Positions 6,130 through 29,598 of a stretch of 64,000 nt of DNA are shown in pieces; within the stretch, counting starts at the first letter, position 1; every line of letters begins with the position of its first letter. The stretch comes from an uncultured virus (IMG/VR IMGVR_UViG_3300013121_000015) (Duplodnaviria > Heunggongvirae > Uroviricota > Caudoviricetes): positions 62,001 to 126,000 of IMG/VR virus record IMGVR_UViG_3300013121_000015, one strand, 5' to 3'. Position numbers and translations under genes: made by a program. Below the pieces are notes generated by a model, which saw only the letters and a list, made by a program, of their open reading frames with translations, made no database searches and was not told the DNA's origin.

Positions 6130-6147
6130 GTCTACCGTGGTAGACAT
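6130..6147. promoter_or_regulatory. Palindrome GTCTACCGTGGTAGAC(AT), operator-like; identical copy at 58147
   Basis: 7-bp inverted arms; intergenic; 18-bp exact second copy. Confidence 0.55.
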
Positions 6148-6153
6148 ATACGT

Positions 6154-6543: not shown

Positions 6544-7061
6544 GCCTGTTCCGCACGTCCATAGTGGTCCTGGACACAGAGACCACCGGCCTACCGAACG
6601 ACCGTGACGCCCGGGTCTGGGAGTTCGGCGCCGTGCTCCTGGACCCGTCCGGACGTGAGGTGCGGCACCTGGAGGTCCGGGGCTGCCCCGAGGTCTGGCA
6701 CGACCGCATGGCCCACGTCGTCCAGATGGGCGGGTTCACGGCCATGGAGCTGCACGCCCTGCCGACGTTCGGGCGGTACCGGCGTGAGGTCCTGGCCTGG
6801 ATGGGCGCCGCGCTCGCCCAGGGCGCCCGGATCACGTCCTACGGGACGCGCTTCGACAGCACCATGCTGGAGCGGTCCGGGCTGGCGTGGCCCGACGCCT
6901 GCTGGACGCGCTGCATCCTGGACACGCTGGGCGGACAGCCCCTGTGGGCCGCTGCGCGTCGCTGGGGCGTGGAGCGGGTCCAGCCAGAGCACCGGGCGCT
7001 CTCGGACGCCAGGACGGCCGCGGGCGTGATGGTGGCGGTCCAGCGGGCGAGGATGCAGTGA
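6540..7061 (+). CDS. DEDDh 3'-5' exonuclease (DnaQ-like)
   Basis: VVLDTETTGL (ExoI), RFDSTML (ExoII), HRALSDA (ExoIII). Confidence 0.9.
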   Translation: MSLFRTSIVVLDTETTGLPNDRDARVWEFGAVLLDPSGREVRHLEVRGCPEVWHDRMAHVVQMGGFTAMELHALPTFGRYRREVLAWMGAALAQGARITSYGTRFDSTMLERSGLAWPDACWTRCILDTLGGQPLWAAARRWGVERVQPEHRALSDARTAAGVMVAVQRARMQ

Positions 7062-8167: not shown

Positions 8168-8514
8168 GCCACGCATCCATTATCGTCCGCTTCTCGGACG
8201 GCCTGATCCTTCACGGCGAGATGAACAACACCGTGGACATCCTGGAGTCGCGCCTGTTCGCAACGGCAGACGAACGGGACGCGATGTGGAGGAAGCAGGA
8301 GCACAAGGACTGCACGTGTGGGCAGGCGTCTGAGAAGGCGTGCGTCTACGAGTTCGCCACCGATGTGCATTGGGAGGTCGCCGTCTGTCGCCGATGCATG
8401 GTCATTGTAGGCCCTTTCCATACGGACTGGTACGACCTGGATGGCAACGAGCAGATCCACGACGGTCCGCCAGACTGGTACGTCTCGACGGCGCCGACGG
8501 GGGAGTCCCCTTGA
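8164..8514 (+). CDS. Hypothetical Cys-containing protein
   Basis: GGAGG SD, ATGA overlap. Confidence 0.6.
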   Translation: MSHASIIVRFSDGLILHGEMNNTVDILESRLFATADERDAMWRKQEHKDCTCGQASEKACVYEFATDVHWEVAVCRRCMVIVGPFHTDWYDLDGNEQIHDGPPDWYVSTAPTGESP

Positions 8515-9029
8515 CCTACCGCATCGTCTTCACCGCCCAGGGGTACCGGTTGGCGCCCCCATCGGGCGAGCCCATCGGCCCCGCCCTCGCGGACCGGTCC
8601 GACGCGGAAGCCTTCCGCGCGTACCTGGCCGGCGCCGAGCCTACCCAGGCAGCCCTGGACGCCTGGAAGGCGACGCTGACCGCTGCCCGGGACGCGCGGG
8701 CCGCCTTCGCGTCCGAGCACGGTCTGGAGGTCTGCGAGGAGCACGGCGACCCGATCTACTACCGGCCCAGCGAGTGCGACCGGTCCGAGGGGAACTGCCC
8801 GTGGTGCTGGTCCGTAGAGTCCGACGAGATCGCCAGCTACGGCCACGCCGAGGCCAGCAAGTCGCTCCACGCGGCCCAGCGCAAGGTCGAGGCCCAGGCC
8901 GCGCGCGTGCCAGACCTGGAGCACGACCTACGCGCCACGAAGGAACGCGCCGAACGTCGGGAACTGGACTTGAACAGCAGGATCCGCGAACTGGAGCGGC
9001 AAGTAGAGGAACTGAGACGCACCCGGTAG
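8511..9029 (+). CDS. Hypothetical protein, Zn ribbon plus coiled coil
   Basis: TTGA overlap, CEEH..CPWC, heptad-rich C-terminus. Confidence 0.6.
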   Translation: MTYRIVFTAQGYRLAPPSGEPIGPALADRSDAEAFRAYLAGAEPTQAALDAWKATLTAARDARAAFASEHGLEVCEEHGDPIYYRPSECDRSEGNCPWCWSVESDEIASYGHAEASKSLHAAQRKVEAQAARVPDLEHDLRATKERAERRELDLNSRIRELERQVEELRRTR

Positions 9030-9048
9030 CGCGCGGCTACCTCCCAGC

Positions 9049-9963
9049 ATGACGACGCACCACGCTACCGCCGACACGCTGACCACCCCACCCCGGCTAC
9101 GCACTCGCCGAGACCAGGAGGACCGCGAGGCCGCCCGTGCGGCCAACGCGCTCGACGCTCAGGCGGAAGCGACGCTCCGGTCCGACCCCGTCCTGGACCA
9201 GCGGGCGACTGACGCCATCGCCGCGTTGAGCCCGCACACGAAGCTCCGGGGGCTGGCTCAGCACGCGCTACGGCGGCTCGCCCGGGAGCACGCCGCGACC
9301 CGTCCAGCGGCCAAGGAAGCCCGCGCCCTGCACGCGCAGGCGGACGCGCTGTACTGGCGCATGGTGCTGGGGTGGGAGCGCCGGATCACAACCGAGGCGT
9401 TCAAGCTCTCCCAGCGATGGTGGGTGGACGGACAGTGGTGGGATGGAGAAGAGGTCCGATCCCGCCTGCTCCTGTCCTGGTTCGAGGCGGCGCTGCGGTA
9501 CGATCCCGAACGGGACCGCGCGTACTGCCAGTTCGCGCACCACGGCGCCTGGGCGAAGTACCCCGAAGCGGGGATGCTGCGTCCGCTGGTCCGGGTCAAT
9601 CTGGGACTGCTCCGGTCCTACGTCCTGGTCTACCTGGAGGACGTGGCGCCCGACCCGGACCCGGACGGAGACGAGATCGACCTGCTCGACCGCGTGCTGG
9701 TAGACGACGCGCCGTCCCCGCTGGACGAGGTCTCCGACCGCCAGATCCTCGACCTCGTCCGGGACTGCCTGCCCGTCCTGTCGTCTCGGGAACGCTTCAT
9801 CCTGGACCAGCGGCACATGGAGGGCGACCTGACGCTACTCGACCTCGGGAAGCAGATGAGGCTGAGCCGGGAGCGGGTGCGGCAGATCGAGCGGGGTGCG
9901 ATCTGGAAGCTGAGGGACGCGCTGGACGCACGGGGGATCACTGGCCATGCCGCTCGGTCCTGA
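9049..9963 (+). CDS. Sigma-70-family RNA polymerase sigma factor
   Basis: Region-2-like EAALRYDPERDRAYCQFA; region 4 LSSRERFIL..TLLDLGKQMRLSRERVRQIERGAIWKLR. Confidence 0.85.
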   Translation: MTTHHATADTLTTPPRLRTRRDQEDREAARAANALDAQAEATLRSDPVLDQRATDAIAALSPHTKLRGLAQHALRRLAREHAATRPAAKEARALHAQADALYWRMVLGWERRITTEAFKLSQRWWVDGQWWDGEEVRSRLLLSWFEAALRYDPERDRAYCQFAHHGAWAKYPEAGMLRPLVRVNLGLLRSYVLVYLEDVAPDPDPDGDEIDLLDRVLVDDAPSPLDEVSDRQILDLVRDCLPVLSSRERFILDQRHMEGDLTLLDLGKQMRLSRERVRQIERGAIWKLRDALDARGITGHAARS

Positions 9964-13534: not shown

Positions 13535-13765
13535 ATGCTCTGGGCTCCGTGGTGGTTGTGGCTGTCCCTGCGTCTCGACGCCGAGGTGCTGGACACGACG
13601 CCCGACGATTTGCTGTCTGCGGTCGCGATCCTGCACGCCCCGGACTTGTACGAGGCGGCGCGCGACGGGTCGCCCACGCTCACGCTCGACGTGCTCCACC
13701 GGGTCGCGTGGGCGCTCGGGATGGACCTGCACGTCAACATCGTGCCGAGAGCGGCAACACCATGA
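13535..13765 (+). CDS. Degenerate XRE-type HTH protein
   Basis: SPTLTLDVLHRVAWALGMDLHV resembles an HTH_3 C-terminus. Confidence 0.45.
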   Translation: MLWAPWWLWLSLRLDAEVLDTTPDDLLSAVAILHAPDLYEAARDGSPTLTLDVLHRVAWALGMDLHVNIVPRAATP

Positions 13766-14121
13766 GCCGCGACGTCGTCGTCACCGTGCCAGCCCGTCTC
13801 TGGTCGGAGTGGCTCTCCGAGGGGGACTGCGCCGGGGAGTCGCGCCGCGCGGGCGTCGAGTACTGGTTCAACGTACCGACCCGGCCCGACGTCGCGCCCG
13901 GGTCCAGGGTCTACGTGGTCGCCCTGGGGAAGCTGCGCGGGTACGCGCCGCTCGTCCGCATCGACCCGGACCCGTACAACCCTCGCGGCTGCCTGCTGAT
14001 CCGGCGGGGCGAGGCGGTCGCCGTCACCCTCGATCAGCCGATCAAGGGCTTCCAGGGCTACCGCTACCGGTGGTGGGAGCGCGCCGCCGAGCGCCCCTTC
14101 CTGGGCTGGAAGACGCCATGA
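13762..14121 (+). CDS. Hypothetical protein (ASCH/PUA-like?) coupled to csf1
   Basis: ATGA overlaps on both sides; PGSRVYVVALGKLRGY, IKGFQGYRY. Confidence 0.6.
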   Translation: MSRDVVVTVPARLWSEWLSEGDCAGESRRAGVEYWFNVPTRPDVAPGSRVYVVALGKLRGYAPLVRIDPDPYNPRGCLLIRRGEAVAVTLDQPIKGFQGYRYRWWERAAERPFLGWKTP

Positions 14122-15071
14122 TCGCCACTCACCTGATCTGGCGTGCTGCGGGCTACCCGAGTCACCCCCACGCCGAGACCGCGCCCGGCGCCTGCTACTG
14201 GTGCGCCGCGCGGCTGGACGGGCTGATCGCCGGGCTCAGCCAGGGCGTGCCCGTGTCCGCCATGCCTGACACCTTCCTGGATGCCTGCGGGCGCGAGGCG
14301 GGCAGCCCGTCCAGCACCCACCTGTGCCCGGCGTGCGCGTGGACGCTGTCGGACGCCGTCATGCTGCCGCGCAAGGTGGGCGCCCCGCTGCTCGCGCGCG
14401 CCCTGAGCGGCGACGGGAACCACCCGGGCCGGCTCAGCGTGGCCGTGGGGGACGAGTTGCCCGCACGCCGGCTGGTGATGCCCTGCCGGTCCGGGGTGGG
14501 CGTCTGGGAGCGCCCCGGCAAGCCCGCCGACGAGTCCGCGTGGGTGGACGCGCACCACCGGCTCCGGACCGAGCCCGCCACGGTGGGGAGCGCGTGCTTC
14601 GTCGGGGTCTACGGCGAGGCGCACCTGGCTGGACGGGTGGGCGGGAAGTTCCGGAACTTCATCCCGTTCGCGACCGCGTCTGGGCGCTGGGAGATGTGGA
14701 CGAAGGCGAACCGAGCCGAGATCCGGTCCGTGCTCGTGTCCCCGCCTACGGAGCCCTGGACGCTCGCCATCGGCGACGGACAGAAGCACGCCGCCATCCA
14801 CGCGCGCGTCAGCGACGGGCGGGTCCGGGGGCAGGTCGTGCGCTTCGAGGATGCGATGGTCCACTACGACCCGGAGGCGCTGCGGCGCGTGGTCGAGGCG
14901 GTGGACGCGCTGCTGGCGGCGGGCTGCCGGCGCGAGCACGTCGAGATCGGGCGCTACCCGATGCTCAGCACGTCCCCGACCGTGCGCGCGATGGAAGCCC
15001 GGGTGCGCCCGTTCCGGGGTGGACCGGTGTTCCTGCTGGCGATGTGGCTGGCGACGAAGGAGACGACCTGA
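14118..15071 (+). CDS. csf1: Type IV CRISPR large subunit Csf1 (Cas8-like)
   Basis: CYWC..CPAC Zn finger, LVSPPTEPW.LAIGDGQKH motif; located upstream of csf2/csf3-like genes. Confidence 0.78.
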   Translation: MIATHLIWRAAGYPSHPHAETAPGACYWCAARLDGLIAGLSQGVPVSAMPDTFLDACGREAGSPSSTHLCPACAWTLSDAVMLPRKVGAPLLARALSGDGNHPGRLSVAVGDELPARRLVMPCRSGVGVWERPGKPADESAWVDAHHRLRTEPATVGSACFVGVYGEAHLAGRVGGKFRNFIPFATASGRWEMWTKANRAEIRSVLVSPPTEPWTLAIGDGQKHAAIHARVSDGRVRGQVVRFEDAMVHYDPEALRRVVEAVDALLAAGCRREHVEIGRYPMLSTSPTVRAMEARVRPFRGGPVFLLAMWLATKETT

Positions 15072-15580
15072 TGTCCATCCCGCTCGATCCCATGCACCTC
15101 GCGCTCGCGACCACCCATCCCCTCCGCGTGGTCGTGATCGCGCTCCTGACCGACCCCGCCGGCCCCCTCGGCGACTGCGCCGCGCGCCCCGAGGACGCCC
15201 CCGCCGCCTACATGCTGGCCCGGATCTACCGCCACGCGCGGGCGCAGGGCCACCTTCACGGCAAGCCCGGCTACGAGGCCGAGGCGCTGTTCGCCACGCG
15301 CGTCCGGTCCACCGTCAGATCCAGCATGGACCCCTTCGCCTTCGCCGAGAAGCTGGCGCGGGCGCTCGGTCTCCGCTGGGACGCGCTCGCCGAAGACGAC
15401 CGGCTGTGGTGGCGCGGGGAGTCGCGGCGCCTGACCGCGAGCCCCGACGGGGTGTCCCTCCTTACGGACTGGTCGAGGCTGCGCCAGCCGTCTCGCCTCG
15501 CCGACCTCATCACCAGCGTCGGGATCGCGGCCGACTTCATCGGGCAGATCCGCGACGCCGAGAAGGAGCCGACGCCATGA
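15071..15580 (+). CDS. Type IV-B small subunit (Cas11-like)
   Basis: All-alpha protein of about 170 aa between csf1 and csf2; FATRVRS..FAEKLARALG. Confidence 0.6.
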   Translation: MSIPLDPMHLALATTHPLRVVVIALLTDPAGPLGDCAARPEDAPAAYMLARIYRHARAQGHLHGKPGYEAEALFATRVRSTVRSSMDPFAFAEKLARALGLRWDALAEDDRLWWRGESRRLTASPDGVSLLTDWSRLRQPSRLADLITSVGIAADFIGQIRDAEKEPTP

Positions 15581-15792
15581 CCTATAGCGCAAATGGCGGA
15601 TGCGACGCCTGCAAGCGGCGCACTGACGACGCACCCTTCAAGAGCCGCGTCCCGGTGCCGGACGGACCCGTCGTGCTCCTGTGTCAGCGATGCGCCGAGG
15701 CTGACCTCTGGCGGAAGACCGCGATCCTCATCGCCCAGCGATTCAGGATCCCATCCTGGGCGCACGTCGCCAACATGGAGCCGACCCCATGA
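15577..15792 (+). CDS. Small Zn-finger protein inserted in the type IV operon
   Basis: CDAC..LCQRC; flanked by 17-bp near-direct repeats. Confidence 0.55.
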   Translation: MTYSANGGCDACKRRTDDAPFKSRVPVPDGPVVLLCQRCAEADLWRKTAILIAQRFRIPSWAHVANMEPTP

Positions 15793-16793
15793 CTCGTCAC
15801 GCCTACGAGTTCCAGATCCTCGTCACGCCGACCCAGCCCCTCTCCCACGGGCAGGGCACGGAGGGTAACGTGCAGGTGCTGCGCAGGACCCAGCGCAACG
15901 TCTGCATCGGGGGCGAGTGGATGAGCCTGGAGGTGCCAGCCATTTCCGGGAGCGCCTTCAAGGCCGTGCTGCGCGAGGCGGCGGTGGACTACTACCTGAC
16001 CGCGCTGGGCGTGCCCGAGGGGAGCCTGAGCCGGGACGGACTGCGCCTGCTGCTCAAGGGCGGGAAGGTCGGCCCCGCCGGTCAGTCCACACCCCACGAG
16101 GAGACGCGCCGGCTGCGGCGCCTGTTCCCCCCGCTGGCCGTGTTCGGGTTCATGGACGGCGCGATCACGTCCCCGGGCCTGCTCCAGAGCTGCGAGCTGG
16201 TGCCGTACACGGTCGAGTTGAAGGAGGCCGGGTTCTTCCAGAACTTCTCGCGCCTGAACCTGCCCCCGATCCCGGAAGCGCTCACGAGCGCCGAGGTCAC
16301 GTACTACCGGCACGATCAGGCGGTCTCGTACCTTGCGCGCTACCTTCCCGGCGAGACCCGCGCCGCCATCGAGGACAAGCGCTCGGCCCGGTCCGGGAAG
16401 GTGGCGACGAAGGAAGAGCGCCGCGAGGCCAACGAGTCCATGCCGCACACCTTCGAGGTGATCCCGGCCGGCACGCCGCTCCTGGGCACGCTCCGACTGA
16501 GCGCCGCCAATGACGTGGAACTCGCCTGCCTGACCCTCGCCATCGCGTCCTGGCGCGCCAGAGGGGCCCACCTGGGCGGCGGGCGCGGCAAGGGGCACGG
16601 GACCTGCGACGTGCAGATGGTGAGCGCGATCCGGCTCGCGGCCGGCGTCGGCCCGGTCCCGGTCAACGTCGAGGCCACGCTGCCCGCCGTGACGGTGGAC
16701 GTGTCCGCGGGTGAGGCCGTGGCGGCCGAGTACGCCGCGCACGTGGCCAGCGTGCGAGAAGATGCTTTGAAGGTGCTTGGGTCCGCGGCCTGA
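15789..16793 (+). CDS. csf2: Type IV CRISPR backbone Csf2 (Cas7 RAMP)
   Basis: TQPLSHG, VPAISGSAFKAVLRE, LLLKGG, LRRLFPPLAVFG, MPHTFEVIPAGT, G-loop LGGGRGKGHG. Confidence 0.88.
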   Translation: MTRHAYEFQILVTPTQPLSHGQGTEGNVQVLRRTQRNVCIGGEWMSLEVPAISGSAFKAVLREAAVDYYLTALGVPEGSLSRDGLRLLLKGGKVGPAGQSTPHEETRRLRRLFPPLAVFGFMDGAITSPGLLQSCELVPYTVELKEAGFFQNFSRLNLPPIPEALTSAEVTYYRHDQAVSYLARYLPGETRAAIEDKRSARSGKVATKEERREANESMPHTFEVIPAGTPLLGTLRLSAANDVELACLTLAIASWRARGAHLGGGRGKGHGTCDVQMVSAIRLAAGVGPVPVNVEATLPAVTVDVSAGEAVAAEYAAHVASVREDALKVLGSAA

Positions 16794-16802
16794 TCTCTCA
16801 TC

Positions 16803-16845
16803 GGATTATTTTCTTGCGCAATTAAATACGATAGAGTATTAGTTG
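16803..16845 (+). promoter_or_regulatory. Sigma70-like promoter (TTGCGC-N17-TATTAG)
   Basis: AT-rich island; -35-like hexamer at 16814; similar to the sites at 21856, 51434 and 58163. Confidence 0.6.
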
Positions 16846-16936
16846 TCCATGGGCGGCGGCGATGATGCCTCCGCTCAGACCCCCGCCAGCCGTCGCGCTG
16901 GCACAGTGGAGCCGACGCGCTCCCAGGAGTCACACC

Positions 16937-17422
16937 ATGGCCCAGCACTTCCTTACGCCCGTCGCCATCCTCGTCCGCATCGCCTACACGCGGCGCATGG
17001 ACATGGAGCTTGACCGAGGCGTCCACCACTACGCGGCGCACGCTGCGGCCAAGGGTCAGGTGTCTGACGCCCTGTCCGCGCTGGACGTTGACAGCACGGA
17101 GATCGCTACCGTTCTGCGGGCGGTCTACGAGATGAACCGGGCCGAGCGGGCCGGGTGCAACCTCAGCGCCAACCGCGCGATCTCCATCGCCATCTACGCC
17201 GCCAGAGAGGACGATCTGGCGCACCCGTCCACGGTCGGCCTGGAGTCGACCATCTACCGCCGGGACGAGGATGGCGTGAGCTACGAGGTCGTATTGAAGA
17301 ACGGCTACTCCGCCCGCACCCCGATCATGCGCCGCGCCTGCCCGCACGGGGCCTACCAGCCCGGCTGGTCGCGTGCGCAGGTTCTTCTCGCGGCCCGCCG
17401 TGCCGGTCGGGTGCTGCCATGA
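16937..17422 (+). CDS. Hypothetical protein (cassette inside the type IV locus)
   Basis: AGGAG SD. Confidence 0.6.
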   Translation: MAQHFLTPVAILVRIAYTRRMDMELDRGVHHYAAHAAAKGQVSDALSALDVDSTEIATVLRAVYEMNRAERAGCNLSANRAISIAIYAAREDDLAHPSTVGLESTIYRRDEDGVSYEVVLKNGYSARTPIMRRACPHGAYQPGWSRAQVLLAARRAGRVLP

Positions 17423-17476
17423 ACGCAAGCCCGTAGATGGGCCCACCGGTGGCTACCCAGCCACCAGGAGCAAGTC

Positions 17477-17911
17477 ATGTCCCTGCCCGACACGATCACC
17501 GGCTACCTGACCGGCGCCATGGACCCTGACGAGGCCGTGGTGCTGGAGGCTCAGGCCGCCGGTGACCCTGACTTCCAGGCTCAGATCGACGCCCAGCGCG
17601 AGGCCGCGCCAGACACCGGCCCACGCCGCGGACGGGCGCCCAGGCTGCTGCGCGTGGCCTGCCCGACGTGCGGAGCCGGCGTGGGGGTCTACTGCCGGTC
17701 CAGCACCGGCAAGGTCCTGGCTAACGGCCACTGGGCCCGCCGTGAGGCTGCCAACATGGACCCGGCCCAGTCCGGCCCAGGGTCCAGCGCTCGCCCGCCG
17801 ACGGACAGCGCCGACGAGCTGGTCAGCGCCATCAAGCGCGCGGCCGGTGCCGGGAAGGGAATCCGCCTGTCCAGCGCAGAGTGCAAGATCCTGTCCGAGG
17901 TCTTGAAGTGA
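17477..17911 (+). CDS. Hypothetical protein with Zn-ribbon segment
   Basis: AGGAG SD; VACPTCGA..C..H.AR. Confidence 0.6.
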   Translation: MSLPDTITGYLTGAMDPDEAVVLEAQAAGDPDFQAQIDAQREAAPDTGPRRGRAPRLLRVACPTCGAGVGVYCRSSTGKVLANGHWARREAANMDPAQSGPGSSARPPTDSADELVSAIKRAAGAGKGIRLSSAECKILSEVLK

Positions 17912-18582
17912 TCCCCCTCACGATCACCGCCCACCTGCACACGCCGCCCGTGATCCGGGAGCCGGTCCTGTTCGACGGCGTGCTGATGGGCGGGCTCGGG
18001 GCCAGCATGGGTGCGGCCGATCCCTCGGGCTGGGTAGACCCGGATCTCGTCTACGCCAAGCGCCTGCCTCTGGAGCACGTGGGCAGGGCTGGCCTCTGGT
18101 GGTACGCCGCGTCCCAGGCCACGCCCCACGGGCCCGAGCAGACCCACTACACCCACCGCCGGATGCCCGCCGAGCACTACCAGCGCTGGACACGGGAGCG
18201 CTCCACCCTGTTCGCGACCGGGCCGGACAAGGGCTTGCGGATCCGGCTGTTCTCCCGGCCGTCTATGCTGGCGATCCGCTGGACGTGTGTGGGCAACCCG
18301 GTGGAGATCGCCCGCCTGCTCACCTTCGTGCCTGGGGTAGGGCACCGGGTCAACCACGGCTGGGGACAGGTGGCCCGCTGGGAGGTGACCGAGGGCGGAC
18401 CAGGGCCAGGAGCCTACGCGACCGACGTGCGGCTGCGCCACCTGCCCGTGTCCTGCGCACCCAGGATGCCCGACCTGGAGGCTACCAGCGTGGCCCCCAA
18501 GCGCCTGCGCCCGCCGTACTGGGGGCGGGTCAACACGGTCGAGTGCGTCTTCGTGCCGGCCCACTTCGAGGTCCAGCCATGA
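17908..18582 (+). CDS. csf3: Type IV CRISPR Csf3 (Cas5 RAMP)
   Basis: PLTITAHL..LFDGVL, LPL..WWYAAS, TGPDK, WTCVGNPVEIARLL..VGHRVNHGWGQVARWEV, LRHLP, RPPYW. Confidence 0.85.
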   Translation: MIPLTITAHLHTPPVIREPVLFDGVLMGGLGASMGAADPSGWVDPDLVYAKRLPLEHVGRAGLWWYAASQATPHGPEQTHYTHRRMPAEHYQRWTRERSTLFATGPDKGLRIRLFSRPSMLAIRWTCVGNPVEIARLLTFVPGVGHRVNHGWGQVARWEVTEGGPGPGAYATDVRLRHLPVSCAPRMPDLEATSVAPKRLRPPYWGRVNTVECVFVPAHFEVQP

Positions 18583-19244
18583 CCGTCTACCGCGCGACCC
18601 GACACGACCTGACCCAGGTCCTCATCCGGGGCGACCTGGAGGACCCGGCCACGCTGGACCTGTACCAGCGCCACCTGCCCGAGCGCGTCCACGCGGTCTA
18701 CTCGGACCCGCCCTGGAACCCGGGCAACGCCACCTACTGGCGGACCCATGCGAAGGACGGCCGCGCCGCGTCCTACAACAGGTTCCTGGACGGCTGGTGC
18801 GCGGTGGCGACGCTGTGCCAGGAGCGCGGTGCCGTGGACGTGCTGGTCGAGCAGAGCGCGAACGTGGCGCACCAGGACTTGCTGCGGGCCGCGATCCGCC
18901 GGTGTCCAGGCTGGCGCCTGCGCGAGCGGGCCGTCTACGCGGTCCAGTACGGGAGCGGCGCCAAGATGCTCCCCAACGCGCTGCTGCACTTCGGAGGGCC
19001 CGACCTGACCACGGACCCGACCGGGATGTACGGCGAGCCCATGACGCTGCGGGCGGTCTTCGGGACCACCCCGACACCCGGTCACGTGCTGGTAGACCCC
19101 TGCACCGGCAAGGGCATGACGAGCCGCACGGCGCACGCCCTGGGCCTGCACTTCGTCGGGAGTGAGCTGAACCCCGAGCGACTGGGCGTGACGCTCAAGT
19201 GGCTGGAGCGCCAGGGGTACGCCGTGGCCGAAGTCGAGTCGTGA
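18579..19244 (+). CDS. Amino-methyltransferase-like protein (beta order)
   Basis: YSDPPWN (motif IV) precedes VDPCTGKG (motif I) and FVGSELNP. Confidence 0.75.
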   Translation: MTVYRATRHDLTQVLIRGDLEDPATLDLYQRHLPERVHAVYSDPPWNPGNATYWRTHAKDGRAASYNRFLDGWCAVATLCQERGAVDVLVEQSANVAHQDLLRAAIRRCPGWRLRERAVYAVQYGSGAKMLPNALLHFGGPDLTTDPTGMYGEPMTLRAVFGTTPTPGHVLVDPCTGKGMTSRTAHALGLHFVGSELNPERLGVTLKWLERQGYAVAEVES

Positions 19245-20149
19245 TCCTCCTGGGCCTGTCCCCGGCCGAGCGCGCTGAGGCCATCCGGACCCGAGCCGCG
19301 GAGGTCCAGGCCAGCAAGGTCTACGTGATCAGCCCGGCCCGGTTCCACCTCCCCGGGCACGTCGAGATGACCAACCCGGAGACGGAGTGCGACGGGCGGC
19401 CCGGCCTGTTCATCGACTGGTCCAGCGTGATCCTGTACCGGTACTACTACCGGCTGCTCCAGGAGATCGGCCCGGACACGCTCCTGGTGGTCAACGAGGG
19501 GCTGAGGACGCAGAACCGGCACGACCTGGCCTACAACTGCATCCGGGCCTACGCGAACCGGACGCCCCATGTCCTGGTCCTGTCCACCTTCCCGATCATC
19601 GACCAACCCGACGACGTGATGACGCTGATCGACTGGGTGACCCGCTCCAAGTGGAAGCGCGACCCCTTCAACCCGTCCATGCTGGCCGAGGTCGAGGTGC
19701 GCGGGCGCGTGCCGGTTCCCACCTTCGAGGCGGTCCACGTCGAGGTAGACCAGCGCACCCGGGACGCCTACGCGGTCGAGAAGGCGAAGGTGCTGGCGGA
19801 GCTACGGGCAGACGGCGACAAGGACCCGCACGTCTTGCCCCGGGCCCTGCACCTCGTCTCCGGGAAGGCAAAGCTGACCCACGTCCGGCCCGGCGTGTCC
19901 TACCTGGGCCGCAACAACCGCTTCAAGGTCGAGGGCCTGGAGACGTGGCGCGACGTGGCTACGGAGGGCGAGCGGACCGCCTTCGAGCTCCCCCACAACC
20001 TGATCGACGTGGCCGACGCGCTGGCCATGACCCGCGCCACCCACGTCCCCGTGCTGGTCGCCGACACCAAGGCCGACCGCTGGTACTTCGAGCGCGTCCA
20101 GGGCTGGGCCGGGAGGGTGCGGGATGCCGCGTCAGCACTTCACCGGTGA
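19241..20149 (+). CDS. Hypothetical protein, possibly a degenerate SF2-helicase-like fold
   Basis: LLVVNE at a Walker-B-like position; coupled to flanking genes. Confidence 0.55.
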   Translation: MILLGLSPAERAEAIRTRAAEVQASKVYVISPARFHLPGHVEMTNPETECDGRPGLFIDWSSVILYRYYYRLLQEIGPDTLLVVNEGLRTQNRHDLAYNCIRAYANRTPHVLVLSTFPIIDQPDDVMTLIDWVTRSKWKRDPFNPSMLAEVEVRGRVPVPTFEAVHVEVDQRTRDAYAVEKAKVLAELRADGDKDPHVLPRALHLVSGKAKLTHVRPGVSYLGRNNRFKVEGLETWRDVATEGERTAFELPHNLIDVADALAMTRATHVPVLVADTKADRWYFERVQGWAGRVRDAASALHR

Positions 20150-21254
20150 GACGGTACTGGAGGCCGCACGCCGCCGGGTAAGCTTCATCCTGGACACGTT
20201 CGGCGAGAAGCTGATCGTCAGCGTGTCCGGGGGCAAGGACAGCACCGTACTGGCCCACCTCGCGCTGGTCGAGGCCGCCCGTCGGGGGCTCCGGATCGGG
20301 GTTCACTTGTTGGACGAGGAGGTCATGTACCAGTCCAGCGTGGATCAGGTGGACTACCTGATGAGCCTGTTCCCCGAGCACACCCGCCGGCTGTGGCTCC
20401 AGGTCCCGTTCAGGCTCACGAACGCGACCAGCCTGACGGAAGGGCAACTGGACGCCTGGGAGCCCGGGTCCCACAAGGTCTGGATGCGGCCCAAGCGGCC
20501 GGACGCGATCCAGCACCCGCCCTGGACGCCAGCCCAGGTGAGCGTCCGGGACAAGCACAAGGGCTTCGGGTTCTACGACGTGATCGACACGTTCGCCCGC
20601 TGCTACCCCGGCCACGCCTTCCTGGTCGGCCTACGCGCCGCGGGGGAGAGCCCCAACCGCTGGCGAGCGGTCACCAAGAACCCGGTCGAGATCGGGGGCC
20701 AGCGCGTCTACTGGGGCACAGCCAAGGGCGAGACGTTCACGCTGTACCCGATCTACGACTGGAACGCGCATGACGTGTGGAAGTACATCGCGACCGAGGG
20801 GATCCGGTACTCCCGCATCTACGACTTCCAGCACCGGCTCGGGTACCCGCTGTCCGAGCGCCGGGTGTCCAGCCTGACCCACGAGCGGTCCTTCAAGGCG
20901 CTGGCCGACCTGCCCGCCTTCGAGCCCAAGACCTACGCGCGGCTGCTCAAGCGGATCAAGGGGATCGCGCTGGCCCAGGAGACGGCGAAGTCGGCCAAGC
21001 TCTTCGCGTGCCGGAAGTTGCCCAAAGGCTACCGGTCCTGGCGCACGTACCGGGACTTCCTGCTGGCTACCCACCCGGACCAGTCCAAGGCGGACATCTT
21101 CCGGGCCCGGTTCGCGCGCCACTTGGACAACGAGTTCGTGGCCCGCCAGCAGGTGCGCCAGCTCGTCTTGAACGACTACGAGAACAACCTGCCCGTGGAC
21201 TCCAAACCGGACCCGCGCGACGCGCTGATCGCCTACTACGACGAGGTGCTGTGA
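20124..21254 (+). CDS. ibrA: IbrA-like / DUF3440-type PAPS reductase-fold protein
   Basis: TVLEAARRRVSFI, VSVSGGKDSTVL, LDEE, LVGLRA.ESPNRW, YPIYDW..DVWKY, YSRIYD. Confidence 0.8.
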   Translation: MPRQHFTGETVLEAARRRVSFILDTFGEKLIVSVSGGKDSTVLAHLALVEAARRGLRIGVHLLDEEVMYQSSVDQVDYLMSLFPEHTRRLWLQVPFRLTNATSLTEGQLDAWEPGSHKVWMRPKRPDAIQHPPWTPAQVSVRDKHKGFGFYDVIDTFARCYPGHAFLVGLRAAGESPNRWRAVTKNPVEIGGQRVYWGTAKGETFTLYPIYDWNAHDVWKYIATEGIRYSRIYDFQHRLGYPLSERRVSSLTHERSFKALADLPAFEPKTYARLLKRIKGIALAQETAKSAKLFACRKLPKGYRSWRTYRDFLLATHPDQSKADIFRARFARHLDNEFVARQQVRQLVLNDYENNLPVDSKPDPRDALIAYYDEVL

Positions 21255-21850
21255 TGGACCGAATCGACACGGTGGCGGACTTCCTGGCGTGGCGTGAGGC
21301 CGACCCGGGCGACGCCTGGATCGTGTCCAAGACCCACGGCCGGATCCCTGTCCCCTGCCTGCGCGTGGCGCTGGTCCTGACCTCGATGGTGGTCGAGAAC
21401 CTGTACAACCCCAACGAGGTGAGCCCGGACAAGATGGACCTGCTCCAGACCTCGATCCTCGCCAACGGGTTCTGCTTCCCGGTGGTGACGGTGTGGGATC
21501 CAGAGGCCGAGCGGTTCATCGTGATCGACGGCGCGCACCGGCGCCAGATCCTCGGCTCGGACTGGCTCGACTGCGACTACGTGCCCGTGGTGGTGCTGCC
21601 TCACGACATGCGGCACCGCCTGGCCGCGACCTGGCAGTTCAACAAGGCGCGCGGGGTCCATCAGGTAGACCTGGACGCCGACCTGATCCGCCGGATGATC
21701 GAGCAGGGCGTGAGCGACGAGGAGATCGCCGCTGCGCTCGGGACCGACCTGGACACGGTTCACCGGTACAAGCAGGTGACGGGGATCGCCGAGCTGTTCC
21801 GGGGCGCGAACTGGTCCGGCGCGTGGGAGATGGTGGAGGACGAGGGGTAG
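21254..21850 (+). CDS. ibrB: IbrB-like ParB/Srx-domain protein
   Basis: NLYNPNEV..MDLL..SI..NGFCFPVV, VIDGAHR, ATWQFNKARGVH, C-terminal HTH. Confidence 0.85.
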   Translation: MDRIDTVADFLAWREADPGDAWIVSKTHGRIPVPCLRVALVLTSMVVENLYNPNEVSPDKMDLLQTSILANGFCFPVVTVWDPEAERFIVIDGAHRRQILGSDWLDCDYVPVVVLPHDMRHRLAATWQFNKARGVHQVDLDADLIRRMIEQGVSDEEIAAALGTDLDTVHRYKQVTGIAELFRGANWSGAWEMVEDEG

Positions 21851-21855
21851 CGGAC

Positions 21856-21906
21856 GGATTATTTTCTATTCGCTATTGCGCGTCTGAATGTAGCATAGTA
21901 ATAGTT
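21856..21906 (+). promoter_or_regulatory. Sigma70-like promoter (TTGCGC-N17-TAATAG)
   Basis: AT-rich island; -35-like hexamer at 21876; shares GGATTATTTTCT with the 16803 site. Confidence 0.6.
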
Positions 21907-21946
21907 AGTCATGGGGCGGCGATGGAGCGGCCCCAAGGAGAGCCCG

Positions 21947-22246
21947 ATGACCGCCACCCATGCCGCCACCCTCGCCCATTTGAACACCCTCCGCGCCGAC
22001 AGCAATGCTGCCCTCCGCGTCATGGAGCGCGCGAGCCAGAATGGTACGTTCGAGGACTGGCGCACCGCACACGCCGCCGCGAAGATCGTGTGCGAGAAGG
22101 AGCGGATCGAGCGTGAGCGCGTCATCGCGGCTGGCTTTGAGGGCGACGTTGACTTCGAGTTTGCGGTTCTTGGGCGCCTCACACGGCGGCATGAGCGGTC
22201 GAGCATGACGACTCAGGAAGTGCGCGCCGCGCTGTACGGGGCCTGA
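21947..22246 (+). CDS. Hypothetical protein
   Basis: AAGGAG SD after a stem-loop. Confidence 0.6.
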   Translation: MTATHAATLAHLNTLRADSNAALRVMERASQNGTFEDWRTAHAAAKIVCEKERIERERVIAAGFEGDVDFEFAVLGRLTRRHERSSMTTQEVRAALYGA

Positions 22247-22247
22247 T

Positions 22248-22559
22248 ATGCCCCCCGGCCGCCCCCGCACCCTCCTGTCTGTTCCGTGCGACATCCACGG
22301 GGACGGACCCTGCCCGTCTCCGAACGGCTGCAAGAACCGCCGGGCGCGCGCCGGGCTCCCGGTCGAGCGTCCCCTGGGCAAGCGCGAGGCGCGGTCCCTC
22401 GCCGCCGGACTGATCGTGAGCTGGACGCGGGGCACGCTGGACGCGGGCGCTGAGATCACGGGGCGGGACGGGGCCGTGCTGGACCCGGAGAGCCGGGAGT
22501 GGGAGCTGGTCCGGGACGCCATCGACCTGCTCCTGGCGGAGATGGACGCGCGGTGCTGA
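22248..22559 (+). CDS. Hypothetical protein
   Basis: Coupled to neighbours; GRPR N-terminus, Cys cluster. Confidence 0.5.
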   Translation: MPPGRPRTLLSVPCDIHGDGPCPSPNGCKNRRARAGLPVERPLGKREARSLAAGLIVSWTRGTLDAGAEITGRDGAVLDPESREWELVRDAIDLLLAEMDARC

Positions 22560-23398
22560 CCCGCTGGCGCACCCTCTCCGCCCACCTGCCCCCGGACGCC
22601 ATCCCGGACCGGCCCGACTTCGGAGCCCGCTACCCCTGGCGAGACGTGGCCCTGCACGCGCGGTCGGTAGAGCTGGGCCGGCGGGTGGAGCAGGCCCGGC
22701 GAGCGCTCGACCTGGCCCTGTCCCTGGACGTGCCCGGGGGCTGGCGCCTGAGCCTGTCCGGTGGCAAGGACTCGTCCGCGCTGGCGGCCCTGTGCGCGGG
22801 CCAGCCCCTCCAAGCCATGTCGGTCAAGGACGACCTGGACTACCCCGGCGAGCGCGAGGCCCTACACCAGCTCGTCCAGCGCACCGGCCACGCGCTGACC
22901 ATCCTGACCCCGCCGGTGTCCCTGCTGGCGTACCTCCAGACCACCCGGCCCAGTCTGGTCGAGGACCTGCACGGGCGCACGGCCGACCTGTCCGCGCGCT
23001 GGTTCTACGGGCTCCTGGAACAGCACCGGACCGAGCATGGCTACGGGGGCGTGCTCCTGGGTCTGCGCGCCCAGGAGAGCCGCGGACGGGCCATGAACAG
23101 GGCCATGCGCGGCTACCTCTACCAGCGCGCCTCGGACGGGCTGCACGTGGCCCAGCCCCTCGCCGACTGGTCCGCGCTGGACGTACATGCGTACCTCTGG
23201 CGGGAGCAGGTCCCGGTCTTGCCGGTCTACCTGTGCGTGGACCCTGGCATGGACGCGCTCGGGATCCGCAAGTCTTGGTGGGTCTGCGGTGGCGGCCCGG
23301 CCAGGAACGGCAGTCACTACGGCTGGCTGCGCCGGTGGTGGCCCGCGTGCTGGCGGCTGGCGGTCGAGATCGACCCGGAGGTCGGACGGCTGAGCTGA
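22553..23398 (+). CDS. cysH: CysH-like PAPS reductase-fold protein (type IV-B accessory type)
   Basis: LSLSGGKDSSAL, LLGLRAQESRGR, PLADWSALDVHAYL..LPVY; downstream of the csf genes. Confidence 0.8.
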   Translation: MLTRWRTLSAHLPPDAIPDRPDFGARYPWRDVALHARSVELGRRVEQARRALDLALSLDVPGGWRLSLSGGKDSSALAALCAGQPLQAMSVKDDLDYPGEREALHQLVQRTGHALTILTPPVSLLAYLQTTRPSLVEDLHGRTADLSARWFYGLLEQHRTEHGYGGVLLGLRAQESRGRAMNRAMRGYLYQRASDGLHVAQPLADWSALDVHAYLWREQVPVLPVYLCVDPGMDALGIRKSWWVCGGGPARNGSHYGWLRRWWPACWRLAVEIDPEVGRLS

Positions 23399-26604: not shown

Positions 26605-29598
26605 ATGACCGCCCAGCAGCACAAGCCCGATGCCGTCATTCTCCGCGACTATCAGGAGGACGCCGTCTCCGACTTCATCGAGTGGATCCGCGCTGGCGAG
26701 CGCTTGATCGGGCTCGTGATGCCCACGGGAGCCGGGAAGACGGTGACGGTGGCGGCGCTGATCCGTCGGGCCCGTGGCCTGTTCCGGGGTGCGCTCATCG
26801 GGGCGCCGACCATGACCACGGAGAGCGGGTTCATGGAGCAACTGGGCGAGGAGGGGTCGTGTGCGCGTGAGGCGGGCGCCAGCGCCTCGGACTGCCGCGC
26901 GTACCTGACCACCCCGGACCGGTTGGCGTGGGTGACAACGCACGCGCAGTTGACGACGTGGAAGAACGCCTGCCTTCCAGATGACCTGTCCGGGCGGCTG
27001 CTGGTACTGGACGAGGCGCACCACGCGGGAACGACCAAGGCCGACGACGTCTTGAACACGGAGATCGGTAACTTCCGCGAGGTGTGGCACAAGCGCGGCG
27101 GGACCGTGCTCCTGGTGACGGCCACGCCGTTCCGGTCCAACAGCAGGGGCAAGCGCCGGCTCGACGTGTTCTCCCAGGGCGCGCGCATCCATACCCTGCC
27201 CATGGCGGTGTACGCGGCGTCTGGCCGGTGGGCTCCGAACACCTTCCAGTTCGAGACTGTGCGCCTCGCCATGCGGGCGACCACGGCCGAGGAGCTCGAA
27301 GGCGCGGCGCTGCCCGTCGCCGAGGGATCGGCCGGCTCGTCGCACCAGGAGATGATCGACCTCTGGGAGCGCCACGGACGGCCCAAGGCGGTCTTCATCG
27401 TGCCGCCCAAGAACTCGAAGCGCTGGGCCGCGCGACTGGAGCGGGCCTTTCCCGCTGGCGTGCGCGTGCTGAACGTCGTCGGGGAAGGCGAAGACATCAA
27501 GTCCAGGCTGGACGAGGCCATGCTGTCCGAGCGCAAGGTGAAGCGGTTCCAGGACTCGCGCTTCGACGTGATCCTGGCCGCCAAGCGCTTCGACGAGGGG
27601 ACGGATTGGCCCCTCTGCTCGCACGTCTACAACCTCGGGATCCCGGGCTCGCTGGGCTTGATCCTCCAGCGGTTCGGCCGCGCGATGCGGAAGAAGATCG
27701 AGGGACACCCACACGCTGACGTGGCGTCCATGACCTTCCTGGTGCCCGGCGTGACCTCCGAAGTGCTGGACGACTTCGAGGCGAAGCACCGCCGGATGGT
27801 CACGGAGATCGCCTGCCTCCAGGTGGACTGGAAGTACGGGCTGTCGGCGGTGGGCGCCAAGTTGGCGGCTTCCTGGTCGCGCCAGGAGAAGCGCGCCAGG
27901 GCTCGGGGCGATGCCCAGGAGACGACGCACGGCCCGGTTCCTGACCACCTGCTCATGGAGGCGAAGGTCATCCTGACGGACTGGAGCGCCGTCCACGAAG
28001 CGCGTACCGGCGCGCTGCCGACGTTCGCGGAGCTGACCCGGTACGCCCGCGAGATGGCGAAGACCCGCCCGGAGCTGTCGAAGGCGTTGCAGCAGGCGGC
28101 GCTGGAGATGGTCGCTGTGGAGCCCGACGCCCGGGACATCATCGTGGCGAAGCTGGACGAAGGGCTGGACCGGAACGCGCTATTCGAGGCCATGAGCGCG
28201 GCGCTGGCCGACAAGACCGTCGGGTACGCCGACGCGGTCTTCGGGATGCGGTCGCGCATGACGGGCGAGGAGATCGCCAGGGTCAAGGAGTGCCTATCTG
28301 ACAAGAAACCAAATCTTACAGAGAGTGGGATTGTCAAGGCGGCAATACATTGCCGTGATAGGACGGGAGATCTTCCCACCCATCTTACCGAAGGAGCCTC
28401 ACTGGACTTTGGATTTCAGGAGGAATGGCACAATGTCGTGGCCGCAATAGCGAACGGTCACAGAGGCATGCCTGGAAATGACACTCTGACACGACTCCTG
28501 CGGCGTAACGGACTGCTGAGATCCAGATATCGTCAGGCTTCAGAAGTTCTGTCCGAATCGAAGGTTGAGGCGGCGGCGGTAGCGTTCAATGCAGATCCAT
28601 ACAACAAAGGGCGATGGCCTCATGAAGGAAGTGGAGATGCATCTAAATACTTTGGACACCACGAGACATGGGATGCAGTAGATCGGGCATTCGTACGTGG
28701 AACACGTGGCCTGCCTCCTGGAAACAGAACGCTTGCCGATTTTCTGTCTGAACGCGGATTGCTCGTGCACAAGCACAAGCGTCCTAAGCTCAGCGACGAG
28801 CTGATCATATCTGCATGCTATCAGTTTCACCGCGACGAGAACAGGTGGCCGCAGCCGTCAGATGGAGACGCCACGAAATACTTCGGATTCACCATCACGT
28901 GGCACGCCGTGTTTCAGGCCGCCTCTCAGAACCTACGCGGTCTTACAGGAGGCGTCACGGTCCAGCAGCGGCTGATTAACCACGGGCTAATAGCCACAGG
29001 CCAACGCTGCAACAGGAAGCCACCAATGAATCCGGTTGAACTCCTTGTGGCGTTGATTGGATTCAGAAACGATACTGGACGGTTTCCAATCTCGTCGATG
29101 GGAGACGCGAGCGACTACTTTGTCAGACCGGAAGTGTGGCGCGATCTCAACACGGTCATGTACAAGGGCTGTAGGGGATTTCGGCCGAAGTCTTCAATCC
29201 TACAGTTTGTGAAAGACCACTTCACCCCCGACGGTGATCTACTCCCAGGCATCCCCGAACGCTACGGGCTCACCCGCGAGCGTCTGCTGAGCTTGACCAA
29301 GGACGACTTCAACCCCGACGGGACTCTCAAGGACACGGCTGGGCAGGCCCTCGGCGCTGAATCCGCGCCCGAGACGGCCCCGATCCTGGTCGAGACCGTC
29401 CGGCCCGCCCCCACCCGCAAGCCCCGCGCGCCCCGCAAGGCGAAGCCCGCCCCCGTGCCCGCCGAGGCCCCTCCGGTCGCGCCCCAGCCCGACCCGACGC
29501 CCCGGACCTGTCCGCCCGTGACCCAGCCCCTAGGCGACGGGAAGCGCCCCGTGGGCAAGCTGGGCCGGTGGATGGAGCGGAGCAGGGCCGAGGGGTGA
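26605..29598 (+). CDS. DEAD/DEAH (ResIII-like) helicase with four C-terminal ~75-aa repeats
   Basis: LRDYQ, MPTGAGKT, LDEAHH, TATPFR, FDEGTDWP, QRFGRAMR; repeats W..V....G.RG(L/M)P. Confidence 0.85.
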   Translation: MTAQQHKPDAVILRDYQEDAVSDFIEWIRAGERLIGLVMPTGAGKTVTVAALIRRARGLFRGALIGAPTMTTESGFMEQLGEEGSCAREAGASASDCRAYLTTPDRLAWVTTHAQLTTWKNACLPDDLSGRLLVLDEAHHAGTTKADDVLNTEIGNFREVWHKRGGTVLLVTATPFRSNSRGKRRLDVFSQGARIHTLPMAVYAASGRWAPNTFQFETVRLAMRATTAEELEGAALPVAEGSAGSSHQEMIDLWERHGRPKAVFIVPPKNSKRWAARLERAFPAGVRVLNVVGEGEDIKSRLDEAMLSERKVKRFQDSRFDVILAAKRFDEGTDWPLCSHVYNLGIPGSLGLILQRFGRAMRKKIEGHPHADVASMTFLVPGVTSEVLDDFEAKHRRMVTEIACLQVDWKYGLSAVGAKLAASWSRQEKRARARGDAQETTHGPVPDHLLMEAKVILTDWSAVHEARTGALPTFAELTRYAREMAKTRPELSKALQQAALEMVAVEPDARDIIVAKLDEGLDRNALFEAMSAALADKTVGYADAVFGMRSRMTGEEIARVKECLSDKKPNLTESGIVKAAIHCRDRTGDLPTHLTEGASLDFGFQEEWHNVVAAIANGHRGMPGNDTLTRLLRRNGLLRSRYRQASEVLSESKVEAAAVAFNADPYNKGRWPHEGSGDASKYFGHHETWDAVDRAFVRGTRGLPPGNRTLADFLSERGLLVHKHKRPKLSDELIISACYQFHRDENRWPQPSDGDATKYFGFTITWHAVFQAASQNLRGLTGGVTVQQRLINHGLIATGQRCNRKPPMNPVELLVALIGFRNDTGRFPISSMGDASDYFVRPEVWRDLNTVMYKGCRGFRPKSSILQFVKDHFTPDGDLLPGIPERYGLTRERLLSLTKDDFNPDGTLKDTAGQALGAESAPETAPILVETVRPAPTRKPRAPRKAKPAPVPAEAPPVAPQPDPTPRTCPPVTQPLGDGKRPVGKLGRWMERSRAEG

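Follow-up and report, generated by a model that had tools for sequence, protein, structure and literature searches.

What does a type IV-B CRISPR effector do when it has no array to guide it and shares a phage operon with a set of conserved enzymes? Since subtype IV-B was defined, its function has been an open question. The question is raised here by positions 13762-23398 of a 64,000-nucleotide (nt) stretch (hereafter the window), which corresponds to positions 62001-126000 of the uncultured tailed-phage record IMGVR_UViG_3300013121_000015 from IMG/VR. This locus is a single, tightly coupled plus-strand operon that contains the IV-B genes csf1, cas11, csf2 and csf3, a methyltransferase (MTase)-like gene (MT), a gene for an SNF2-fold protein (X), genes for IbrA- and IbrB-like proteins, a cysH-like gene and six small open reading frames (ORFs). 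An original prediction, made from the letters of the window, had suggested that the locus may encode an RNA-guided or RNA-scaffolded modification or anti-defence machine. Our favoured explanation, which we hold at somewhat better than even chances, is that an array-less IV-B operon is functionally joined in a tailed phage to an autonomous X-IbrA-IbrB-MT cassette, with Csf proteins and the cysH-like gene replacing a helicase and a further protein (U), to form a nucleic-acid modification machine; its physical association, substrate, chemistry and biological role are what we infer.

Identity of the type IV-B operon

The window locus is a genuine array-less subtype IV-B effector operon in which every testable defining feature is present. 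As predicted, csf1, cas11, csf2 and csf3 lie on the plus strand at or near the expected positions, where PADLOC recovers the three csf genes (Table 1) and structure identifies cas11. The prediction had also proposed a check against Csf and RAMP (repeat-associated mysterious protein) profiles, and the ORFs match both such profiles and the solved IV-B complex. A Csf2 profile built from 22 homologues has the Csf2 chain of that complex as its best match in PDB (7jhy_e, 1.3e-35), with IV-A Csf2 chains at 5e-13 or weaker. Matches of csf1 to PADLOC and NCBIfam models (TIGR03114, 3.7e-4) are confined to its C-terminal half, and Csf1 residues C26, C29, C70 and C73 are kept in at least 90% of 20 homologues. 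For the Cas11 protein, no match was found by sequence profile against PDB or by Foldseek. Its homologues are located between csf1 and csf2 in 10 related loci, its AlphaFold2 (AF2) model is all-helical (predicted local distance difference test, pLDDT, 85.8), and a wide structural search with VIA-align places 7jhy_h ('Type IV-B CRISPR Complex') at the top with Z 8.3, a root-mean-square deviation of 3.6 and 131 of 143 residues aligned, followed by a runner-up at Z 4.8. Small subunits of the I-B CRISPR-associated transposon, of type I-C and CasB occur lower in that list. Because csf1, csf2 and csf3 do not reach the NCBIfam equivalog cut-offs (csf2 scores 25.9 bits against TIGR03115, for which the cut-off is 130), the window system is a divergent member of IV-B.

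Stand-alone IV-B loci carry orthologues of the cysH-like gene. Across 31 homologues, its product has an invariant S69-x-GKDS-74 loop and no conserved cysteine, with R172, E175 and R179 kept in at least 90%; its profile matches CysD and 3'-phosphoadenosine-5'-phosphosulfate (PAPS) reductases best in PDB. This agrees with CasCysH as published, which keeps the PP-loop without a conserved cysteine (PMC8175902). Absence of an array and of cas1, cas2 and cas6, which had been noted for the window, extends to the whole 133,178-bp genome: no array was found in either, and PADLOC finds none of the three genes across 152 ORFs submitted from the genome. Rfam families and tRNAs are likewise absent from the window. 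The genome also has no Cas-type dinG. A DinG/YoaA-family helicase lies outside the window in the replication module, about 40 kb away (genome 33645-36116, minus strand), and is not of the Cas type because YoaA/DinG models far outscore Csf4 (9.9e-86 for the NCBIfam YoaA model versus 6.2e-7).

Homologues of Csf2 in a large protein database number 74, and the closest (62-88% identical) come from metagenomes only. DNA context is available for 10 related loci at 37-64% identity, in which the gene order is csf1-cas11-csf2-csf3, an ORF of about 250 amino acids (aa) and a cysH-like gene; none of MT, X, IbrA or IbrB occurs within their flanks. A megablast search with the locus and a tblastn search with Csf2 gave no match in plasmid and isolated-phage collections, and the window Csf2 has no relative in Csf2-based scans of 185,579 species genomes. 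The stand-alone loci have features of their own. The ORF that separates csf3 from cysH (L006 11670-12425, L007 11682-12425, L014 9421-10155, and also L011 and L013) weakly matches Cas6b_C (5.2e-4, 8.7e-5) and has a glycine-rich GxHRxEGxG end, and it may be a Cas6-like RAMP protein in loci that are said to have none; no homologue occurs in the genome of the window. Locus L012 has a ResIII/Helicase_C protein before csf1 (2928-4322) and a radical S-adenosylmethionine (SAM) enzyme after csf3 at the usual cysH site (7662-9179). A tandemly repeated palindromic element in L014 (4922-5040; period 54 nt) precedes the csf1 reading frame by about 650 nt.

An enzyme cassette with apparently alternative partners

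X-IbrA-IbrB-MT is a conserved, autonomous and widespread phage cassette. We compared 139 fetched loci, 51 of them obtained through IbrA and 80 added by a scan with an X alignment, by six-frame annotation with profile hidden Markov models (HMMs) built from the window proteins and their first matches, with identical copies collapsed. IbrA is 52-83% identical to the window protein in 48 of the 51 loci and about 30% identical in L053-L055; these loci come from IMG/VR and from genomes or metagenome-assembled genomes (MAGs) of Bacteroidota, Bacillota, Pseudomonadota, Verrucomicrobiota, Chloroflexota and Thermodesulfobacteriota. X-IbrA-IbrB with MT directly before X or after IbrB occurs in 86 non-redundant loci with guanine-cytosine (GC) contents of 25-69%, in phages and prophages; the loci are from IMG/VR, from MAGs and genomes of at least six phyla and from two plasmids. 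Among cultured organisms, a Fusobacterium varium plasmid carries IbrA-IbrB-MT. On a plasmid of the cultured haloarchaeon Actinarchaeum halophilum (L146, NZ_CP071309.1, 2229-9083), csf1, csf2, csf3, a cysH-like gene, MT, IbrB and IbrA stand in a row, annotated as hypothetical except for the PAPS-reductase and ParB genes.

The IbrA/IbrB pair is itself widespread in phages, and the window resembles it in having a protein with PAPS_reduct and DUF3440 domains followed by a ParB-like protein. It differs in that the pair is always accompanied here by X, by a small MTase-like gene and by either Csf genes or an SNF2 helicase. IbrA homologues of isolated phages are less than 36% identical to the window protein. 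To our knowledge, no biochemical function has been established for the pair.

Conservation of the window proteins points to MT, IbrA, IbrB, the CysH-like protein and Csf1 being constrained as enzymes or binders rather than decaying. The gene that had been called MTase-like from its DPPW motif matches PF01555 below the family cut-off (6e-4; 20.3 bits, cut-off 26.7) and gives weak PADLOC matches to MTase_II and mad2. Its D43-P44-P45 and D173/C175/G177/G179 are kept in at least 90% of 83 homologues, and its motif I has Cys at the position where beta-class MTases usually have Phe. IbrA matches both PAPS_reduct and DUF3440 above the Pfam cut-offs, with its S35-GGKDS-40 loop and more than 130 positions kept in at least 90% of 83 homologues. 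In IbrB, which has a TIGR00180 match below the cut-off and a weak HTH_23 match at its C-terminus, D93, G94, H96 and R97 are kept in at least 90% of 87 homologues. The IbrA-like, ParB-like and cysH-like assignments stand as predicted.

X had been described as degenerate and helicase-like, which is correct: it has a two-lobe SNF2 fold without the ATPase motifs. Its AF2 model, built from an alignment of 22 homologues, has a pLDDT of 93.3 and a predicted template-modelling score of 0.89, and Foldseek matches it to the SNF2 ATPase cores of CHD4, Chd1, INO80 and ISWI (E 1e-8 to 1e-7, TMq 0.5-0.7). ESM Atlas neighbours are SNF2-related (about 0.9), SNF2-rel_dom is weakly matched in 3 of the 22 members, and the X profile has no match among PDB sequences. 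SNF2 proteins carry the motif DEAH-R-x-K-N, at the place of which X reads NECLRTQNR; NECL stands at motif II in the window protein as well as in the consensus sequences of 22 and of 82 homologues, and there is no Walker A motif (GxGKT), as GKT is missing. X is therefore classed as SNF2-like and not as an SNF2 ATPase, because both Walker A and a DExH motif II are missing.

Linkage of the MTase/IbrAB genes to IV-B elsewhere was another check proposed with the original prediction, and the linkage recurs: csf genes occur in 26 of the 86 non-redundant cassette loci. In 25 of these 26, no more than 1.5 kb separates the Cas block from the cassette, and in 23 no more than 300 bp does (by stop-to-stop ORF bounds); both are on the same strand in 25. 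The remaining locus by distance, L078, has only a csf3 fragment 8 kb away and was not counted as adjacent. A cysH-like or PAPS-reductase ORF is present in 24 of the 26. The cysH-like gene accompanies csf: among cassette-only loci, only one has a flanking PAPS-reductase-like ORF, at 8 kb distance. Gene order varies, with 18 order strings among csf-linked loci (e.g., csf2-cysH-X-IbrA-IbrB-MT-csf3 and csf1-X-IbrA-IbrB-MT-cysH-csf2-csf3), and several loci have the cassette within the Cas operon. The csf-linked label requires 10 changes on the IbrA tree, at least four of them forced by supported branches, against a shuffled mean of 23.1; the link is therefore clustered yet has been gained or lost several times. 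Csf2 proteins of linked loci are highly divergent (18-46% identical to the window Csf2). Window IbrA groups with that of L067 (83% identity), which has an identical gene order, and window Csf2 groups with stand-alone loci and more distantly with L067. Window cysH is 38-41% identical to that of L006, L007 and L013, 36% to a truncated copy in L011 and 62% to L016/L067. These affinities would fit either module exchange or unequal rates. One csf-IbrAB composite on a phage contig (L079, 1336-1445) also has two identical 37-nt repeats 73 nt apart, which resemble a mini-array, 5.5 kb upstream of csf1.

Csf genes and cysH appear to replace an SNF2 DNA translocase and U in about a third of the cassette loci. 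The usual partners of the cassette, in most phages and prophages, are a true SNF2 helicase and U, a protein of about 380 aa. Eight of nine cassette-only loci annotated with Pfam have a true SNF2 helicase directly before X, with SNF2-rel_dom and Helicase_C domains and 466-501 aa in seven, and with the SNF2 domain alone and 407 aa in L059. U is an ORF of 263-385 aa without a Pfam match that precedes the helicase in seven of these eight (not in L059). When HMMs of the SNF2 helicase and U were run across all loci, the 83 that bear X divided into 49 with an adjacent SNF2 helicase and no csf, 24 with csf and no helicase, one with both (L094) and nine with neither, of which L045, L074 and L141 end at a contig edge. 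A naive Fisher test of this exclusion gives p = 1.8e-12 over rows that are related by descent. The window genome has neither U nor an orthologue of the cassette SNF2 helicase (the best score, 26 bits, belongs to its own unrelated SNF2 gene). U and CysH profiles show no relationship (hhalign probability 0.3%). Against PDB, the profile of U (for example, the ORF at L061 4409-5554) has a single weak match, to the anti-CRISPR AcrIF23 (7fia, E 0.006).

Co-location could also have a simpler cause, namely that IV-B with cysH and the IbrAB cassette are independent systems that share an insertion hot spot in accessory regions. The genes downstream of the locus (uracil-DNA glycosylase (UDG)-like, SAM-dependent MTase, tyrosine integrase and ResIII helicase) are typical accessory cargo, about 60 loci have the cassette on its own, cassette-only copies adjoin lysis genes and integrases, and IV-B stands alone in six relatives. 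Interleaved gene orders with the cassette within the Cas operon, 4-nt overlaps at junctions, and a common strand and spacing within 1.5 kb, each in 25 of 26 loci, argue otherwise, and near-exclusive alternation of csf and SNF2 (both in one of 83 loci) is hard to attribute to chance co-location. We consider a shared hot spot quite unlikely as the explanation.

Candidate functions of the composite

Alternative front ends of one enzymatic core are the simplest reading because Csf with CysH and the SNF2 helicase with U are distributed in a complementary manner. Covalent DNA modification is favoured because the core of ParB-like, DNA-type amino-MTase-like and PP-loop proteins resembles the logic of Dnd, Dpd and type 4 bacteriophage exclusion (BREX) systems. 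A Csf2/Cas11 filament, with Csf1 and Csf3 as caps, would assemble on RNA and engage nucleic acid, and would perform the substrate finding or loading that is done elsewhere by a DNA translocase. The filament would recruit the enzyme core, in which IbrB may clamp or mark DNA, the MTase-like protein may flip out or methylate a base, and the IbrA and CysH-like PP-loop enzymes could adenylate a substrate group and enable its substitution. The result would be a covalent mark on DNA (less likely on RNA) for use in phage-host or phage-phage conflict. In the published view, CasCysH probably acts as an ATP alpha-hydrolase and modifies the nucleic acid to which the IV-B ribonucleoprotein is bound (PMC8175902). 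A more far-reaching version, which we regard as doubtful, is that IV-B Csf complexes are RNA-based loaders that repeatedly replaced the SNF2 translocase in a widespread phage DNA-hypermodification machine of PP-loop, ParB-like and MTase proteins, which would make IV-B a natural writer of epigenetic marks under RNA direction, and not an RNA sponge or immune effector.

The comparison with modification-based systems can be made part by part. Dnd (DndB/DndC), Dpd (DpdA/DpdB/DpdE), BREX type 4 (BrxP) and the defence island system associated with restriction-modification (DISARM; DrmD/DrmMII) combine PP-loop, ParB-like, MTase and SNF2 parts, as the loci studied here do. Window IbrA and cysH weakly match the PADLOC DndC and BrxP models, far below the family cut-offs, and helicases near the window operon match DpdE, DrmD and PbeA models. 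DndA/D/E, PglZ, BrxC, DrmA/B and a DpdA beside the cassette are all missing from the operon by PADLOC, unlike in those systems. The likeness is one of shared logic and not of membership.

The target might instead be RNA. Under RNA-directed anti-defence, the IV-B filament would capture guide RNAs of the host or further small RNAs, which the PP-loop and MTase proteins would modify or inactivate. PP-loop enzymes commonly modify tRNA bases (TilS, ThiI, TtcA), which counts towards this possibility, as does the fact that the element is a phage. The solved IV-B complex formed on heterogeneous non-CRISPR RNA, and a sponge role has been discussed (PMC8175902; bioRxiv 10.1101/780106). The partner that Csf appears to replace is an SNF2-type double-stranded DNA translocase, IbrB is ParB-like and MT resembles the DNA amino-MTase class, which point to DNA. 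The cassette also occurs in prophages without any Cas genes. RNA-directed anti-defence seems unlikely.

Control of gene expression is a further candidate, in which the Csf complex would direct the cassette to phage or host promoters in a manner similar to CRISPR interference. The IbrA/IbrB pair reportedly activates prophage gene expression, and the C-terminus of IbrB resembles a helix-turn-helix (HTH). Type IV-A works by transcriptional interference (PMC12669027). A source of guides is absent, however, and two ATP-using catalytic loops and the MTase motifs are strongly conserved, which argues for chemistry rather than binding alone. We consider control of gene expression quite unlikely.

The modification machine that we prefer has several observations set against it. 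MTase and ParB matches are both under curated cut-offs, and neither a guide RNA nor any conserved structured RNA turned up in array, Rfam, tRNA and fold searches. An integrase adjoins the locus in its accessory region, where unrelated systems tend to accumulate. The cassette is missing from the six nearest stand-alone IV-B loci with enough flank (L006, L007 and L011-L014), so that IV-B is not dependent on it. Only three phylogenetically independent pairs for the csf/SNF2 exclusion fall on supported branches, with a sign-test median p of 0.5, which is an underpowered test. The csf-linked sample was gathered through IbrA and X and carries no estimate of the fraction of IV-B loci that bear the cassette.

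Operon layout, phage context and relation to known systems

Operon features are listed in Table 1. Genes were called from codon bias, which was chosen because the GC content is high, and a plot of third-position GC content (GC3) by frame was also used. Every gene between 13556 and 24691 is on the plus strand and most junctions overlap by 4 nt. The operon has ten overlapping junctions, of which nine share 4 nt and one shares 7 nt; the 4-nt ATGA/GTGA overlaps occur at csf3/MT, MT/X, IbrA/IbrB and six further junctions. Translational coupling, including that of csf3 to MT, had been predicted and is confirmed by these overlaps. Two points of position need correction: 13762 is not the start of csf1, which begins at 14118, but that of a separate 119-aa ORF, and csf2 and csf3 are not adjacent, with a 161-aa ORF and a 144-aa zinc-finger ORF between them. 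The predicted gene list was correct for the genes that it named and overlooked the six small ORFs, among them the 71-aa ORF between cas11 and csf2, which fills the apparent gap there, and the two before cysH.

Table 1. Features of the operon in window coordinates, with the basis for each assignment
Feature	Position	Strand	Basis
119-aa ORF	13762..14121	+	codon-bias call; ATGA-coupled to csf1
csf1 (Cas8-like large subunit, four-Cys zinc site)	14118..15071	+	PADLOC typeIV_Cas8 4.1e-15
cas11 (small subunit)	15044..15580	+	synteny and structural match to 7jhy_h
71-aa zinc-ribbon-like ORF, CxxC...CxxC	15577..15792	+	translation; GC3 frame plot; ATGA overlap with cas11 and csf2
csf2 (type IV Cas7)	15789..16793	+	PADLOC typeIV_Cas7 1.9e-38
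Intergenic region with AT-rich stretch, 143 nt	16794..16936	.	sequence
161-aa ORF, lineage-specific	16937..17422	+	gene call
144-aa zinc-finger ORF	17477..17911	+	Pfam Phage_zn_bind_8 8.8e-9; GTGA-coupled to csf3
csf3 (type IV Cas5)	17908..18582	+	PADLOC typeIV_Cas5 1e-30; TIGR03116 8.7e-10
MT, compact beta-class amino-methyltransferase-like	18579..19244	+	DPPW (motif IV), then DPCTGKG (motif I)
X, 302-aa SNF2-fold protein	19241..20149	+	AF2 model, Foldseek
IbrA-like PP-loop enzyme	20124..21254	+	PAPS_reduct 7.2e-10 and DUF3440 3.5e-8 (Pfam)
IbrB-like ParB/Srx-fold protein, DGxHR motif, C-terminal HTH-like region	21251..21850	+	TIGR00180 2.9e-5, below cut-off
111-aa ORF	21911..22246	+	gene call; no Pfam, NCBIfam or PADLOC match
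103-aa ORF	22248..22559	+	gene call; overlaps cysH start by 7 nt; no Pfam, NCBIfam or PADLOC match
cysH-like PP-loop enzyme, IV-B accessory	22553..23398	+	PAPS_reduct 8.7e-9

The 119-aa ORF weakly matches DUF1489 (1.1e-4, below the cut-off) and its nearest named ESM Atlas cluster is PUA-like (0.88), so that it is possibly PUA-like, which we give as a lead only. The 161-aa ORF has no match in Pfam, NCBIfam or PADLOC, and no homologues of the 119-aa, 161-aa and 111-aa ORFs were found among the fetched loci. The AT-rich intergenic region after csf2 is a possible internal promoter; it has no match to a sigma-70 consensus, a promoter and terminator scan found nothing above chance, and its RNA fold z-score (-1.7) is unremarkable. 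Across the zinc-finger ORF region (17472-17802), summed contig depth is far above that of its neighbours in three metagenomes, which suggests that this segment is shared with other, more abundant elements. Metagenome contigs 90-99% identical to the locus, from at least three DNA-based studies, span the junctions between the zinc-finger ORF and csf3, csf3 and MT, and X and IbrA. Contigs from an RNA library match parts of csf1, cas11, csf2, csf3 and cysH at 90-95% identity, which is not proof of transcription. Among public sequencing runs, the share of sampled words is at most 0.20 in any run.

The element is one 133,178-bp sequence with 70% GC. Its final 141 bases are identical to its first 141, which indicates that the genome is complete or circularly closed. 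Outside the window, PHROGs annotation recognises a tape measure protein, a portal, a large terminase, a head-tail adaptor, an endolysin, a primase/helicase and several DNA MTases, and the element is therefore a tailed phage. Further genes outside the window specify a Mom-like protein, a queuine tRNA-ribosyltransferase-like protein and a thymidylate-synthase-like fusion, which together with the DNA MTases suggest that phage DNA is heavily modified. Downstream of the locus are a UDG-like gene, a SAM-dependent MTase, a tyrosine integrase and a 997-aa ResIII helicase (26605-29598). This helicase has a PbeA-like or dnd-restriction-like N-terminus. Visual inspection of its translation shows a motif with 'GDA..YFG...W', about 70 aa long and present in four copies, at its C-terminal end. 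A second cluster of modification-type genes at window positions 2135-8167 comprises DUF5131 (2135-3085), a DndC-like PP-loop enzyme (4163-5407; PADLOC 2e-34), a DEDDh exonuclease (6540-7061) and a BrxP-like PAPS reductase (7058-8167). PAPS-reductase-family genes in the window total four. A solitary 490-aa ORF (49964-51436, plus strand), which follows an SNF2 helicase (47891-49567), resembles the N-terminal half of type I-G Cas8g1/Csx17 (TIGR04113, 134 bits against a cut-off of 150; PADLOC Cas8g, 1.7e-39); no further type I-G genes were detected near it.

Among characterized systems, subtype IV-B itself, represented by the Mycobacterium sp. JS623 complex (PDB 7JHY), has a similar composition: all five signature genes are present on a mobile element, and array, adaptation genes, cas6 and nuclease are all missing. 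Unlike the JS623 system, the window locus is on a 133-kb tailed phage rather than a plasmid, and its operon is interrupted by six small ORFs and by a four-gene enzyme cassette between csf3 and cysH. Types IV-A and IV-D, in which Csf proteins occur with a DinG or RecD helicase, are similar in that a Csf effector either works together with a superfamily helicase or occupies its genomic position. They differ in that the window Csf genes appear in place of a helicase and beside an enzyme cassette, X keeps only the SNF2 fold, and there is no array or cas6.

Parts of this picture have precedents. IV-B systems in phages and archaeal viruses are already known (PMC10848311), the legend to a figure of IV-B neighbourhoods names an N6-MTase (bioRxiv 10.1101/270033), and one phage scaffold that is listed with both IbrA/B and CRISPR/Cas has a type I-E system (PMC4490671). 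In the publications searched, no cassette of IbrA, IbrB and SNF2-like genes with IV-B and no alternation with an SNF2 helicase was found; supplements of IV-B surveys may show such neighbourhoods. The main text of the 2025 classification paper does not mention CysH, PAPS, ParB or SNF2. According to reviews, the function of IV-B is expected to lie with its cysH-like partner (PMC8175902; bioRxiv 10.1101/780106).

The composite described here provides a testable clue to the function of IV-B. It ties IV-B and its cysH-like gene to a defined set of enzymes whose catalytic motifs are conserved, and to an SNF2 helicase as a clear genomic alternative. If it is true that Csf and CysH substitute for the helicase and U, this would be a new use of Cas effector complexes and possibly a natural tool for targeted base modification.

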